From: an uncultured Gammaproteobacteria bacterium
GTDB taxonomy: Bacteria; Patescibacteriota; Patescibacteriia; Patescibacteriales; UBA12465
Direction of reading: 5' to 3'
Length of the DNA stretch: 64,000 bases
Assembly: GCA_964355275.1 (NCBI GenBank)
Contig: CAYHCB010000001.1
Coordinates: forward strand, 1,532-65,531
The translations under genes were made by a program, and so were the position numbers. Numbering within the stretch: the first letter of the stretch is position 1; every line of letters begins with the position of its first letter. Below are positions 18,534 to 27,946 of this stretch, in pieces. The notes beneath the pieces are model-generated. The model saw only the letters and a list, made by a program, of their open reading frames with translations. It was not told the DNA's origin and did no database searches.

Positions 18534-18577
18534 TTTTACCTCCTTTTTTTAACTTGTTAAGAATACAATAATAATTT

Positions 18578-18606
18578 AATCTAAATTAATATTCAATTTT
18601 TGTCAA
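18578..18606 (-). promoter_or_regulatory. sigma70-type promoter for 17886-18533
   Basis: On the minus strand: TTGACA (18606-18601), a 17-nt spacer, then TAGATT (18583-18578). The -35 context is ATTGACAAAAAT, as in several other promoters here. Confidence 0.55.
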
Positions 18607-18626
18607 TAGTAAAGTTGATATTATTA

Positions 18627-18656
18627 TTGACAAAAAATGAGTATAAGTGATATATT
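18627..18656 (+). promoter_or_regulatory. sigma70-type promoter (extended -10) upstream of purA
   Basis: TTGACA (18627-18632), then TGaTATATT (18648-18656). It lies back-to-back with the divergent promoter at 18578-18606. Confidence 0.5.
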
Positions 18657-18770
18657 TTTTAATTGTGAGGCACCTTAACATCAATTTTTTAATATTTATT
18701 AGGTTATCTAAGTTTCTTAGTTTAGGCGACTGAGCTAACCCAATAAGTATTAATTAAAAAAATAGGAATC

Positions 18771-20273
18771 ATGAGAAAGCTCTTTTTAGATTTAGAAAAT
18801 GTTAAAACTATTTTCATTACTTGTCGCCAATTTGGTGACACCGGTAAAGGTAAATTCGTAGATGCTTTGGCCGATTGGGCTGATGTTATCGTTCGTGGAA
18901 CTGGTGGTGACAACGCCGGTCATACTATTTGTCACCAAGGAGAAAAATTAATTACACATATCATCCCATCAGGGATTCTCCGGGACAACATTGGTAAAAT
19001 AAATATCATTGGCAGTGGTGTCGTTCTTTATCCTAAAACTGTAATTTACGAGTTATCCGAACTTAAGAAGCGCGGTTTAAGTTATAAAAATTTACTAATA
19101 GCTTACAACGCTAAATTAATCACACCAGCCGAAATAGCTTTAGACCGAATAAGAGAAAGCACTGCTGGTAAAGGTAAAATTGGCAGCACCGGCAAGGGCA
19201 TTGCCCCGGCTTACGCTGACTTTATAGATCGTCAAGGACTTTTGGTTAATGATTTAATTAATCCAGATTTATTATTAAAAAAACTAATAAAACATTTGGC
19301 TTATAAAGAAAAAATTATCAAAAATTATCCTAAATCCTTAATCAGGGAGGTGATGTTTCAGGAGCACTTAAATTTCGGCCAGTACTTTGATGCTAAGAGA
19401 GTGTTTGACACCGAAGCAATTTTTGAACAATATTTAAAATATGGGGAAGAATTGCGGCCTTTGATTGCTGATACTGACCATTTTATTAGGCAAAACATTG
19501 GTAAGCTTAATATTTTAGGCGAAGGCGCTCAAGGTGACTTGCTGAGCATTAAATATGGCACCTATCCTTATGTGACATCTTCAGACTCCAGTGTTGCTGG
19601 CTTAGCCGAGGGAATTGGCATAACTAAAAATGATGTTGATTTATCACTCGGAATAATAAAAGGTTTTTACATGACCAGGGTTGGCAGCGGACCGTTTCCA
19701 ACAGAAATAGGTGGTAAAGCATCAGCTGACTGGTGTAATGGTGGAAAAGTAAATAAAGCAATTGAGGAGGCTCTTTATAGCGTAGCATCGGTTAATGAAG
19801 AAAGTAATGAGTTTCTTCAGGGTGTAGCGCTAAGACGTGCTGGAGATGAGTATGGGGCCACTACCGGGCGCCCTCGTCGCGTTGGTTGGCTAGATTTACC
19901 ATTACTGCGGTATGTCATGGATTTCAATCAAAATAATATAATTTTAACAAAGTTAGATGTTTTAAACGATGTTAAAGTTATCAAAATTTGTGAGAAATAT
20001 ATCTATCAGGGGCCACCAGTTATTTATGCTGGGCAATCCATTGATACGGGTGACTTTTTAAGAAACGCTATCCCAGCAGCCGAGATTCTGGAATTTTGTA
20101 AGCCAGTTTACGTCTCTTTTCCAGGCTGGTTGCAAGACTTAAGCAAATGTTCAGATTTTGCTAGTTTGCCCAAGCAGCTAAAGGATATCCTGGAGTTTAT
20201 CGTTAGTGAAACTGGTATAACTCCGAAAGTAATTTCAATTGGCGCTGATCGAAACGAAACAATCTATTTATAA
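18771..20273 (+). CDS. purA: adenylosuccinate synthase
   Basis: 500 aa. P-loop QFGDTGKGKFVD, then GGDNAGHT, GSTGKGI(A)PAY, and YGATTGRPRRVGWLD. It is longer than typical (about 430 aa) because of an insertion before the GRPRR block. Confidence 0.9.
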   Translation: MRKLFLDLENVKTIFITCRQFGDTGKGKFVDALADWADVIVRGTGGDNAGHTICHQGEKLITHIIPSGILRDNIGKINIIGSGVVLYPKTVIYELSELKKRGLSYKNLLIAYNAKLITPAEIALDRIRESTAGKGKIGSTGKGIAPAYADFIDRQGLLVNDLINPDLLLKKLIKHLAYKEKIIKNYPKSLIREVMFQEHLNFGQYFDAKRVFDTEAIFEQYLKYGEELRPLIADTDHFIRQNIGKLNILGEGAQGDLLSIKYGTYPYVTSSDSSVAGLAEGIGITKNDVDLSLGIIKGFYMTRVGSGPFPTEIGGKASADWCNGGKVNKAIEEALYSVASVNEESNEFLQGVALRRAGDEYGATTGRPRRVGWLDLPLLRYVMDFNQNNIILTKLDVLNDVKVIKICEKYIYQGPPVIYAGQSIDTGDFLRNAIPAAEILEFCKPVYVSFPGWLQDLSKCSDFASLPKQLKDILEFIVSETGITPKVISIGADRNETIYL

Positions 20274-20286
20274 ACTTAGAGTTTGC

Positions 20287-20317
20287 ACCGCCGATAACCA
20301 ATATCGGCGGTTTTTTT
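20287..20317 (+). terminator. rho-independent terminator of purA
   Basis: 10-bp stem accgccgata (20287-20296) / tatcggcggt (20302-20311) followed by a T7 run. Confidence 0.8.
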
Positions 20318-20320
20318 ATA

Positions 20321-20348
20321 TAAAAAAGCTATCCTTGTTGGGATAGCT
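20321..20348 (-). terminator. rho-independent terminator of the beta-CASP hydrolase gene
   Basis: Stem agctatcc (20327-20334) / ggatagct (20341-20348). On the minus strand it is followed by T6 (the plus-strand A6 at 20322-20327). Confidence 0.65.
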
Positions 20349-26010: not shown

Positions 26011-26054
26011 TTTTTATTACTTTAACAATTTAATAAACTAAAAGGAGAAAGAAA

Positions 26055-27227
26055 ATGAGAAAAGAACTAGCGATGATGATTATCGCGCAACTAAAATCAG
26101 TAGAAAAAATAATACCCTTTTTTGAAAAAACTAAATACGATATTGATGTTTGCGAACTTGGAATGTCATTTACATCATCCGAGGAACAGGTAAGAGATAT
26201 TATGGAGAAAACTGGTTACAATAAAAATGTTTGCCAGGCCGGTATTTCATTTCTTAGCTCAGAAATTGAAATAATGAAAATAATGAAAATAACTGGTTAT
26301 AACTGGAGCGTTTGTCAGGCTGGCATTAATCATATTAGCTCCGAAGAAGGTTTATTACTCGTTATGAAAAAAACTGGCTACAGTTGGCAAATGTGCCAAG
26401 TGGCTATTCCACTCCTTAAACTAGCAGAAAAAACGGAGGAGCAATTAATGAATTTAATGCGAAAAACTAATTATAACGTCTATGTTTGCCGAGAAGGCAT
26501 AACATTACTTAAATTAGAAAATCACGTTATTTCAATAATGGAAAAAACCAACTACAATAACGATGTTTGTCAGGCTGGTATTTCGCTTCTTAAATCGGAA
26601 GAGCACATAATGCTTATTATGAAAAAAACGAAGTATAGTTGGCACACTTGTCAGTCAGGAATTAACCTTCTTAAATTAGAGGAAAAAACTGAGGAACAAA
26701 TATTGAATATTGTTGAAAAAACTCATTATGATTGGCGAATCTGTAAACAGGGTATTTCTTTTTTACAATCAGAAGAGCATGTGTTATTTGTGATTAAAAA
26801 AACTAATTACAACAGTGATGTTTGCCAGGCCGGTATTCCATTACTTAAATTTAGCGAAAAGTCTGAAAGTCAGATTATTGCTATCTTAGAGCAAACTGAT
26901 TACAACAGAGATTTTTGTAATGCCGGGGTTCCCAGTTTGCAATTAAATGTTAAAAGTGAGAAGAATCTTTTAACTTTAATGGAATTAACTAGCTATAATA
27001 GTAATGTTTGTCGGTTCGCTATTTTATTTTTAAAATCCGAAAATAACATTTTAGAAATAATGAAAAAAACTGGCTATAATACTGATGTTTGCCAGGCCGG
27101 TATTCCATTACTTAAATTTAGTGAAAAGGGGCGTGATGAAATTTTAGCTATTATGTTAAAAACTGAATATAACGGCGACATTGCTCAAGCTGGAGTGTCA
27201 GTATTAAACGAGTTAGGTGAAAGCTAA
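26055..27227 (+). CDS. Cys-repeat protein 1: 13 tandem helical repeats of exactly 27 or 31 aa, family not recognised
   Basis: 390 aa. The repeat consensus is KT.Y..(D)VCQAGI..LK(S)EE.I..IM, with Cys at repeat position 9 in 12 of 13 units. There is no signal peptide. It has an SD AAGGAG, a promoter and a terminator. Confidence 0.8.
   Translation: MRKELAMMIIAQLKSVEKIIPFFEKTKYDIDVCELGMSFTSSEEQVRDIMEKTGYNKNVCQAGISFLSSEIEIMKIMKITGYNWSVCQAGINHISSEEGLLLVMKKTGYSWQMCQVAIPLLKLAEKTEEQLMNLMRKTNYNVYVCREGITLLKLENHVISIMEKTNYNNDVCQAGISLLKSEEHIMLIMKKTKYSWHTCQSGINLLKLEEKTEEQILNIVEKTHYDWRICKQGISFLQSEEHVLFVIKKTNYNSDVCQAGIPLLKFSEKSESQIIAILEQTDYNRDFCNAGVPSLQLNVKSEKNLLTLMELTSYNSNVCRFAILFLKSENNILEIMKKTGYNTDVCQAGIPLLKFSEKGRDEILAIMLKTEYNGDIAQAGVSVLNELGES
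26127..27224 (+). repeat. in-frame tandem coding repeats (81- or 93-nt period) in Cys-repeat gene 1
   Basis: The units are 27 aa (x7), 31 aa (x5) and a 22-aa terminal unit. Near-identical DNA of about 45 nt occurs at about 26817-26862 and 27084-27129 (gatgtttgccaggccggtattccattacttaaatttag). Confidence 0.85.
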
Positions 27228-27245
27228 ATAATTTTGTAAAGCAGG

Positions 27246-27280
27246 AAGAGTTAGGACCTAAAGTTCTAACTCTTTTTTTT
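27246..27280 (+). terminator. rho-independent terminator of Cys-repeat gene 1
   Basis: Stem aagagttag (27246-27254) / ctaactctt (27266-27274) followed by a T-run to 27280. Confidence 0.75.
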
Positions 27281-27371
27281 ATTAAAAAATGAATTGGTCA
27301 CCTAAATATTTATTTGTTATAATAAAAATAATACCCAATTTAAATTAAAAGGGGGATAATTTTTAATTTTT

Positions 27372-27848
27372 ATGAAAAATTTTTTAAAAGTCGGTATGGG
27401 GTTTGGTTTAAGTTCAGCCACGATTACAACGCTTGGTTTAATGATTGGGCTAGAATCAAGTACCGGCTCTAAATTAGCTATTATAGGTGGCGTTTTAACC
27501 ATAGCTATAGCCGACTCATTCTCTGATGCTTTAGGTATCCATATGGCCAAAGAATCTGAAGGTAATTTTAGTACCAAAGAAATTTGGCAAGTGACTTTAT
27601 CAACTTTTTTATTTAAATCATTTTTTGCTTTAACATTTGCGGTTCCTGTTATATTTTTACCAATGAATCAGGCTCTTTTAACAGCCTGTGCTTGGGGGGC
27701 AATAATTTTGTTATTCCAAAATTATAAATTAGCTAAAGACAACAAAGCTAAGTTTTTACCAATATTTTTTGAACATTTTTCTATTGTCATCTTAGTTATG
27801 CTTTTGACTCATTATTCCGGTAAGCTTATTGCCTATTATTTTAATTAA
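27372..27848 (+). CDS. VIT1/CCC1-family-like membrane protein (putative Fe/Mn transporter, TM domain only)
   Basis: 158 aa with about 5 TM segments. GLMIGLESS ... AIADSFSDALGIHMAKESE resembles the VIT-family core (G..vG ... ADa.SMa.GeY.S..SE). Recognition is by eye only. Confidence 0.5.
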   Translation: MKNFLKVGMGFGLSSATITTLGLMIGLESSTGSKLAIIGGVLTIAIADSFSDALGIHMAKESEGNFSTKEIWQVTLSTFLFKSFFALTFAVPVIFLPMNQALLTACAWGAIILLFQNYKLAKDNKAKFLPIFFEHFSIVILVMLLTHYSGKLIAYYFN

Positions 27849-27872
27849 ATTAGATAATATAATTAAGCAGTA

Positions 27873-27901
27873 TTGATAAAATAGCTTATTTGTGATAGAT
27901 T
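27873..27901 (+). promoter_or_regulatory. sigma70 promoter (extended -10) for Cys-repeat gene 2
   Basis: TTGATA (27873-27878), then TGaTAGATT (27893-27901). The architecture is the same as at 25981-26010. Confidence 0.55.
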
Positions 27902-27946
27902 TTTGTATTACTTTAACAATTTAAAAAAATAAAAAAAGGAGGAAAA

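Follow-up and report, generated by a model that had tools for sequence, protein, structure and literature searches.

A TTAACAA element in the mRNA leaders of a patescibacterial genome and its likeness to BoxA

The DNA described here is a 64,000-nt stretch (the window) of contig CAYHCB010000001.1, from an uncultured bacterium that GTDB places in the Patescibacteriota. It holds ∼50 genes and has a G+C content of 31%. Our subject is the heptamer TTAACAA, which recurs in the 5' leaders of several of these genes and which an earlier note on the same DNA took for part of a translation-linked leader module. Comparison with related genomes makes it reasonably probable that TTAACAA is instead the 3' core of a lineage-specific BoxA, which would recruit NusB-S10 to mRNA leaders. 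At rRNA operons, BoxA is the RNA signal by which NusB and ribosomal protein S10 are loaded onto RNA polymerase, nucleating the antitermination complex.

The heptamer and its setting in the window

Intergenic copies of TTAACAA lie at 18560-18554 (minus strand), 22068, 22085, 23189, 26022, 27913 and 62276; the respective gaps to the ATG are 20, 43, 26, 20, 26, 27 and 20 nt. All seven are on the sense strand, each 5' of a gene. These coordinates and gaps had been given in the earlier note and proved exact on recount. The genes concerned encode a bestrophin-like membrane protein (17886-18533, minus strand), a 184-aa product (22118, whose leader contains both 22068 and 22085), an NMO-family protein (23216; NMO), two repeat proteins (26055 and 27947) and a GHL15 protein (62303; GHL15).

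Predicted promoters precede the copies. The 22118 unit has TTGACA-17-TATAAT at 22036-22064, with 12/12 matches, and the same hexamers and spacing are found for the GHL15 unit (62224-62252), where both hexamers are kept in orthologs. The promoters of the other units are TTGACA-18-TATATT (26055; 25981-26010), TTGATA-17-TAGATT (27947; 27873-27901) and TTGACA-17-TAGATT (17886; minus strand, 18578-18606), and a promoter-like site, TTGACT-17-TAACAT, is predicted for the NMO unit at 23105-23133. From the predicted −10 boxes to TTAACAA the distances are 3, 11, 11, 17, 20, 23 and 55 nt, and hence as variable as had been described. The extended −35 context said to be common to most of these units was also found: TTGACAAAAAT, comprising the −35 hexamer and the start of an A-rich spacer, has four exact matches in the window (18596-18606 on the minus strand, 22036-22046, 25981-25991 and 62224-62234), all of them −35 regions of motif-bearing units. 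Its counterpart in the purA promoter is TTGACAAAAAA (18627).

Five of the six motif-bearing leaders have (A)GGAG(G) 4–7 nt 5' of the ATG, as previously reported. Shine-Dalgarno (SD)-like sequence is otherwise scarce, again as reported; it is seen for only 7/48 window genes, and TTAACAA is present in five of those seven. Genes with an SD are concentrated at 17.9-29.2 kb.

Counted on both strands of the whole window, TTAACAA shows no enrichment (30 observed versus 37 expected). In the sense leaders (−60 to −1) it occurs in 7/48, compared to 0.94 expected from dinucleotide shuffles (p = 6e-5), and it is the top non-SD 7-mer of these leaders. One caveat here is that an equally extreme 7-mer arises in 11% of shuffled leader sets, and in 50% of them once one of the two paralogous leaders (26055 or 27947) is removed. 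Taken alone, the window weakly supports enrichment above chance. With an experiment-wide p of ∼0.1–0.5, evidence from outside the window was needed.

Flanking positions and conservation in relatives

Leader copies of TTAACAA share an extended motif, A-G-T-N3-TTAACAA-N3-A, that is absent from genic copies. Over 368 kb of non-redundant clade DNA, A is found at −6 in 24/34 leader copies, G at −5 in 25/34, T at −4 in 26/34 and A at +4 in 31/34. Genic copies have background flanks, with G(−5) in 14/121. The leader-versus-genic comparison for G(−5) gives a nominal Fisher p of 6e-12, a value inflated by relatedness; at least six independent gene families contribute to it. Sites conforming to the strict pattern GTNNNTTAACAA fall in leaders in 15/19 cases (284 kb of clade DNA).

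We scored all 30 window copies with a flank matrix trained on non-window sites only. The five best scores all belong to leader copies, namely 62276 (9.0), 22085 (8.8), 23189 (8.1), 26022 (1.6) and 27913 (−0.1), while 22068 (−4.6) and 18554 (−8.9) fall among the genic copies. Because the training set held orthologs of 23189 and 62276, it is 22085 that provides the independent test of the flanks; its score of 8.8 comes from a matrix built on non-window sites of other gene families.

Three sites emerge as strong BoxA-like candidates on these sequence features. The first, GTAAATTAACAA (22080-22091, plus strand), carries the full G-T-N3-TTAACAA and lies 15 nt past the −10 box and 26 nt short of the 22118 ATG. 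The second, GTTAATTAACAA (23184-23195, plus strand), is in the NMO leader, where a predicted hairpin (23140-23173, −7.9 kcal/mol) ends 10 nt 5' of it; the fold predicted for the leader leaves the site itself unpaired. The third, GATCATTAACAA (62271-62282, plus strand), is in the leader of GHL15, which lacks an SD.

We rank as intermediate candidates the two occurrences of TTACTTTAACAA, at 26017-26028 and 27908-27919 (both plus strand), which mark the predicted mRNA 5' ends of the repeat-protein genes 26055 and 27947. These have C and T at −2/−1, like boxA, but the G at −5 is absent. A 13-nt stretch of the E. coli rrsH leader matches sequence of this type, CTTTAACAATTTA, exactly. The two leaders have a block in common, ATTACTTTAACAATTTAA, despite only 38% identity between the proteins.

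The remaining two copies are doubtful as BoxA-like sites. In the leader of 17886-18533, TATTCTTAACAA (18554-18565, minus strand) preserves the heptamer only. The copy at 22068-22074 (plus strand) begins 3 nt past the 22118 −10 box (TATAAT, last base 22064) and overlaps the predicted transcription start. As the flanks of both resemble those of random genic copies, they may be due to chance. Two copies, 18 nt apart, are also present in an unrelated leader from a relative (L086; relatives are cited by such handles), upstream of a gene called at 6146. Comparison of its protein with the 22118 product revealed no homology, and the 22118 leader may have a paired-copy arrangement of the same kind.

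The window leaders are predicted to be unstructured, and in five of the six the site is free of pairing. The exception is 22118, in which the first residues of the site fall within a marginal AU stem (−1.3 kcal/mol). Window copies sit 3' of predicted (unmapped) promoters and on the sense strand, and so would be present as single-stranded sense RNA, as BoxA is.

Orthologous leaders were collected for two of the genes. NMO leaders came from contigs encoding homologs and from metagenomes scanned with a degenerate DNA pattern hand-designed for this clade of the Candidate Phyla Radiation (CPR); a profile search of contigs with the NMO alignment yielded, among the matches listed, only distant NMO genes (≤47% identity). 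The protein homologs are annotated as Candidatus Falkowbacteria or Patescibacteria, which marks the window as DNA of a CPR bacterium. Across 17 distinct orthologous leaders (60–94% protein identity), TTAACAA is present in 10, a C-to-A version of the block in five (AGTWATTTAAAAA, TTTAAAAA), and neither in two. AGT-N3-TTAACAA is kept in these ortholog leaders, while the remaining leader and the genomic neighbourhood have diverged. In one of them (L095, ∼325-370), three tandem copies of TCAGTAAAACATAT stand directly 5' of the BoxA-like site.

For GHL15, syntenic orthologs were found in four genomes, at 55–71% protein identity. G-A-N-C-N-TTAACAA is invariant in all five leaders, the window's included, and none of them has an SD. 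The motif thus persists in orthologous leaders whose other positions have diverged, which indicates that it is real. Judged by this conservation and by the leader-type flanks, the element at 22080, 23184 and 62271 is not a product of chance.

Motif-bearing leaders of unrelated genes include that of an IMP-cyclohydrolase gene (L092), the unassigned L086 gene with its two copies, and seven secreted-protein genes (L114-L117). In the seven, the motif is present and the SD is absent. A conserved structured RNA element of ∼95 nt lies 5' of these secreted-protein genes. It begins with a hairpin, GGAGAATAA..TTATTCTCC, followed by a long hairpin made up of TTAAGACTTGAG, a covarying inner stem, the loop CGAAA and CTCGAATCTTAA; GT-N3-TTAACAA comes next and, after 13–18 nt, the ATG. 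Instances are at L114 14733-14864, L115 16477-16608 and 19539-19670 (minus strand), L116 14712-14843 and 19586-19717 (minus strand), and L117 14785-14916 and 17810-17941 (minus strand). The element of L114-L117 has no SD, corresponds to no Rfam family and was not found in the window. Hairpins with covarying stems stand 5' of the BoxA-like site in the NMO leader as well as the seven secreted-protein leaders, a layout that resembles rrn-type nut sites.

Leaders of this wider set do not preserve the spacing. The earlier note had described fixed distances of 20 or 26–27 nt to the start codon; in orthologous and related leaders the gap is 13–33 nt, and up to 61 nt if second copies are included. Nor can the SD be retained as part of the module, since GHL15 and the seven secreted-protein leaders carry the motif without one, and where an SD is present in orthologous and related leaders the motif-to-SD gap is 4–23 nt. 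Given the variable distances to the −10 box, SD and ATG, and the SD-less leaders, the element is not a translation module of fixed spacing.

Likeness to BoxA, competing readings and a possible mechanism

In four relatives (L092, L108, L110 and L112), the leader of the 23S rRNA contains GT-N3-TTAACAAT ∼150 nt before the mature 5' end, in the variants GGTACG-, AGTCCG- and AGTCCC-TTAACAAT. The leader regions are at L092 18640-18985, L108 12675-13014, L110 11745-12092 and L112 14187-14526. The first locus was met by chance, and three more were reached through a conserved S1-FtsH-L32-NusB-RNase III-PilT gene cluster. Each leader has a TTGACA-17-TATAAT promoter (∼330 nt upstream), a hairpin, AACCGC-N6-GCGGTT, and then the BoxA-like site, ∼180 nt downstream of the promoter. 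The site thus occupies the interval between promoter and mature rRNA, near a hairpin, as a BoxA would; these are loci of relatives, the window itself being without an rRNA gene. Several other traits of the locus may be recorded. In these genomes the 23S gene is not linked to the 16S gene; it comes after the S1-FtsH-L32-NusB-RNase III-PilT cluster and has a consensus promoter of its own and a 330-nt leader. A terminator-like hairpin with a U-run lies ∼20 nt 5' of the BoxA-like site, and no Rfam family matched the 23S leader. The L110 23S gene spans 4.66 kb, and that of L111 has a LAGLIDADG open reading frame within it (likely an intron).

NusB is encoded beside the 23S gene, in the same cluster, in four clade genomes; in the window's own genome its gene would lie outside the window. 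Against solved NusB structures the clade protein gives E values of 1e-17 to 1e-22, and it retains the KFVNGVL helix with the Phe that stacks on BoxA (PMC3177189). By this homology the protein is a bona fide NusB.

The sequence of the E. coli boxA is TGCTCTTTAACAA / UGCUCUUUAACAA, and the clade's 23S-leader site occupies the corresponding place. Reading the E. coli rrsH leader directly (TGCTCTTTAACAATTTATCAG) shows that TTAACAA matches the 3' end of boxA and that the conserved G(−5) corresponds to the critical G2. The closest agreement is that of GATCTTTAACAA, from the GHL15 ortholog leaders of L114, L115 and L116, which is identical to E. coli GCTCTTTAACAA at 11/12 positions. In E. coli rrn operons, boxA lies at −147 to −133, in the order boxB-boxA-boxC, with a second set before the 23S gene (PMC10250234). 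The clade sites agree with rrn BoxA in the 3' UUAACAA, in the G five bases upstream, in being sense single-stranded RNA, in a position 130–150 nt before the mature rRNA and past a promoter and hairpin, and in the presence of NusB in the clade. They differ in that most of them do not keep the central CUCU of the E. coli 8-nt core, the conserved part being shifted 3', and in that the clade's rRNA copy is known only from the unlinked 23S gene of relatives.

Gamma-proteobacterial boxA has the consensus GYTCTTTAANA, and the consensus may differ between lineages (PMC5725501). The C-to-A variants of the NMO orthologs coincide with its N. GHL15 orthologs match the consensus at 10/11 positions and the window sites at 7–9/11, five of the specified positions coming from the heptamer itself. 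The only perfect match in the window, GCTCTTTAACA at 20346-20356 (plus strand), is inside a convergent terminator hairpin between purA and a beta-CASP gene; ∼0.8 such matches are expected, and this one is probably meaningless.

A number of findings weigh against a BoxA. With two or fewer mismatches, GYTCTTTAANA has 352 matches in the window compared to 354 expected, so the gamma-proteobacterial consensus is undiscriminating in AT-rich DNA. The sequence read by NusB-S10 in E. coli, lambda and Aquifex is 8 nt long (GCUCUUUA), and its G2, C5 and U6 are critical (PMC3177189). Only G2 is general among the clade's leader copies (25/34). C5 is preserved in 12/34, namely in the rRNA, GHL15 and 26017/27908 types; the NMO, 22080 and secreted-protein types have A instead. 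U6 is preserved in 16/34, and even the rRNA copies of the clade have G or C in its place. The invariant UUAACAA is mostly 3' of the 8-nt core, and the clade's NusB-S10 would need to read a shifted register. The candidate site RNAs are GUAAAUUAACAA, GAUCAUUAACAA and UUACUUUAACAA, and the rRNA type is GUCCGUUAACAA. Moreover, the four 23S leaders are 86% identical overall, such that conservation of the motif there is not specific, and they come from relatives rather than from the window's genome. Finally, once the window and the targeted families are set aside, relatives show only ∼3-fold enrichment in leaders, and this is due largely to one paralogous family.

BoxA is known from a few mRNAs. In gamma-proteobacteria, suhB and a few other mRNAs are under the control of a BoxA that lies within 50 nt of the start codon, and a genome has 0–7 such sites (PMC5725501). 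The sites described here are similar to those of suhB, rpsJ, prsA and ParE-like toxin genes (Baniulyte et al. 2017, PMC5725501) in lying within ∼50 nt of the start and in their variable distance to the SD; function without SD occlusion is reported for that system. Unlike those, which belong mostly to Nus-factor and translation genes, the sites here number three to five in 64 kb, have a different consensus, and precede genes in the window and clade for an oxidoreductase, a glycoside hydrolase, repeat proteins and secreted proteins, with no Nus factor among them. BoxA upstream of CRISPR arrays keeps polymerase processive, according to Stringer et al. as cited in PMC7862264. As cited there, it too is a reuse of BoxA outside rRNA, on RNA that is free of ribosomes, but the arrays are long and non-coding whereas the genes considered here are translated. 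A hairpin adjoins BoxA in lambda nut sites, as it does in the NMO, secreted-protein and rRNA leaders. Here, as in rrn, the hairpin comes first and BoxA second, while in lambda BoxA precedes boxB, and there is no sign here of an N-like protein. The reported double-stranded-RNA-binding surface of NusB-S10 is contiguous with its BoxA site (PMC3177189).

Other readings of the motif have to be weighed. The site might serve another RNA-binding protein, or an endoribonuclease acting on pre-rRNA and mRNAs, for example a processing nuclease or an ACA cutter of the MazF type. A sense-strand, single-stranded site common to rRNA and mRNA leaders would suit either, and for a nuclease the motif contains ACA; E. 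coli MazF has been reported to cut within the BoxA segment of pre-rRNA (PMC12541390). A nuclease that trims leaders would also agree with the leaderless or short-leadered look of most window genes. However, no candidate protein was identified, the likeness to boxA goes beyond ACA (the G at −5, and 11/12 identity in GHL15 leaders), and the position in the rRNA leader is that of boxA rather than of the known processing stems. We consider this reading unlikely.

About as improbable, or slightly more so, is a translation-linked element, in which heptamer and A-run would boost initiation as an enhancer or standby site, or by epsilon-like pairing with 16S rRNA. It accords with the motif's presence in five of the seven SD genes of the window and with its placement, always 13–43 nt from the start codon in A-rich, unstructured RNA. 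A parallel is the epsilon enhancer of T7 gene 10 (UUAACUUUA); it too is an A/U-rich element containing UUAAC just 5' of a strong SD. But the role proposed for epsilon, through pairing with 16S rRNA, is confined to translation, whereas the clade's motif occurs also in rRNA leaders and in SD-less leaders. An epsilon-like enhancer would be expected only in translated leaders; in four relatives the same extended motif stands in the untranslated 23S leader, and its spacing to the SD (4–23 nt) and ATG (13–33 nt) is not conserved among orthologs. The translation-linked element proposed in the earlier note is for these reasons not sustained. Its alternative suggestion, a site for an RNA-binding regulator that marks a regulon, is close to BoxA; the mark at RNA level holds, and the obligatory link to SD and translation does not.

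A DNA operator is very improbable. Such an operator, for instance a near-palindrome GTTAA|TTAAC bound by a transcription-factor dimer, would repress strong promoters, and sites do lie just 3' of strong promoters; GTTAATTAAC, at 23184, reads as a perfect 10-bp palindrome, and near-palindromes are found at several other sites. Yet the left half varies freely without co-variation, G(−5) stays when C changes to A, the orientation is strictly sense, the gap from the −10 box can be as short as 3 or as long as 55 nt, and the motif recurs ∼180 nt downstream of the rRNA promoter. We rejected the palindromic operator for the lack of co-variation and the strict orientation. Also rejected was a −10 hexamer plus transcription start (TAnAGT-N3-TTAACAA), because the TA of the hexamer is not conserved in NMO orthologs and conserved promoters lie further upstream. 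The earlier view that this is no promoter element stands insofar as it is a strand-specific element of transcribed leaders, although the fixed-spacing argument behind that view fails. Boxes for CtrA, TnrA/GlnR, Fur/PerR, IHF and FapR/FabT, compared by eye, do not fit. The tail of a preQ1-I riboswitch was considered too, as UUAACAAAACAAGG occurs in a known preQ1-I aptamer; the leaders have no suitably placed P1 stem, and 17700-29600 has no such Rfam match at E ≤ 1.

Chance recurrence of a functionless AT-rich heptamer in AT-rich leaders, for which the lack of a whole-window excess, the experiment-wide significance of 0.11–0.5 and the genic-like flanks of 18554 and 22068 can be adduced, has as little probability overall as the DNA operator: it is refuted for 22080, 23184 and 62271 by conservation amid divergence in 10/17 NMO and 5/5 GHL15 orthologous leaders and by leader flanks distinct from genic ones in at least six independent gene families, and it is live only for 18554 and 22068.

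For the BoxA reading, then, which we hold to be the probable one, the clade consensus would be approximately A-G-T-N3-T-T-A-A-C-A-A-N3-A. The element would be transcribed as single-stranded RNA within the 5' leader, and on leaving RNA polymerase it would be bound by the NusB-S10 (NusE) heterodimer. With NusG and NusA as partners, NusB-S10 would tether the leader to polymerase, giving a Nus-modified elongation complex as at the clade's 23S leader, and transcription of these mRNAs would become processive and resistant to termination. Because the site is only 4–30 nt from the ribosome-binding region, the bound complex should also keep 30S subunits off the start region, so that the supply of free Nus factors would set the expression of a small regulon. 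By analogy with known systems, the outcome of NusB-S10 binding could be antitermination, as in rRNA operons and CRISPR arrays, suhB-like repression, or both at once. At suhB, translation is repressed through looping and Rho terminates transcription, the effect on translation being secondary in E. coli (PMC5725501); any such effect here would likewise be secondary.

A broader view is more tentative. It is possible, if doubtful, that Falkowbacteria-like CPR bacteria, in whose genomes most mRNAs lack an SD and have very short leaders, express a sizeable regulon, perhaps a few percent of their genes, in a general way through rRNA-type antitermination at BoxA, often with an adjoining hairpin. In that event polymerase would be Nus-modified, Rho-resistant and tethered to the leader, with transcription uncoupled from translation and expression tracking free NusB and S10. 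Our literature search found no paper linking BoxA with CPR or Patescibacteria. BoxA and the Nus factors are classically a device of rRNA operons and phage lambda, and the known mRNA targets are few and all gamma-proteobacterial. If the BoxA reading is correct, a CPR bacterium of reduced genome uses BoxA at much higher density, with a shifted consensus and with metabolic and cell-surface targets. In a phylum where hardly any regulators have been characterised, this would offer a starting point for the study of gene regulation, as well as a short RNA–protein pair that can be tested and a practical rule for annotating CPR rRNA leaders and the regulon.

Neighbouring genes and other features

A small protein with a weak Pfam match to Janus/Ocnus (phosphohistidine phosphatase) is encoded at 22691-23035 and is co-transcribed with 22118. 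The repeat proteins of 26055-27227 and 27947-29230 are paralogs (38% identical), each a string of about twelve repeats of 30 residues (..KT.YN.DVCQAGI..LK..E..) in which a Cys is conserved. Neither has a real match to a Pfam family. A short relative of these proteins is encoded at L090 13534-14257 (minus strand).

The Rfam search of 17700-29600 at E ≤ 1 found nothing except a SAM riboswitch (RF00162, 60 bits), at 29332-29446 (plus strand) and 5' of the gene at 29532-30503. It is the one SAM riboswitch of the window. The leader of purA, ∼110–130 nt long (18657-18770, plus strand), follows a strong promoter at 18627-18656, is without an Rfam match at the same threshold, and could be an uncharacterised regulatory leader.

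In many window genes, among them 9666, 14456, 25447 (minus strand), 38441 (minus strand), 39869 and 52990, a TATAAT-like box ends 0–13 nt before the ATG. This placement suggests that most mRNAs of the window are leaderless or have very short leaders.

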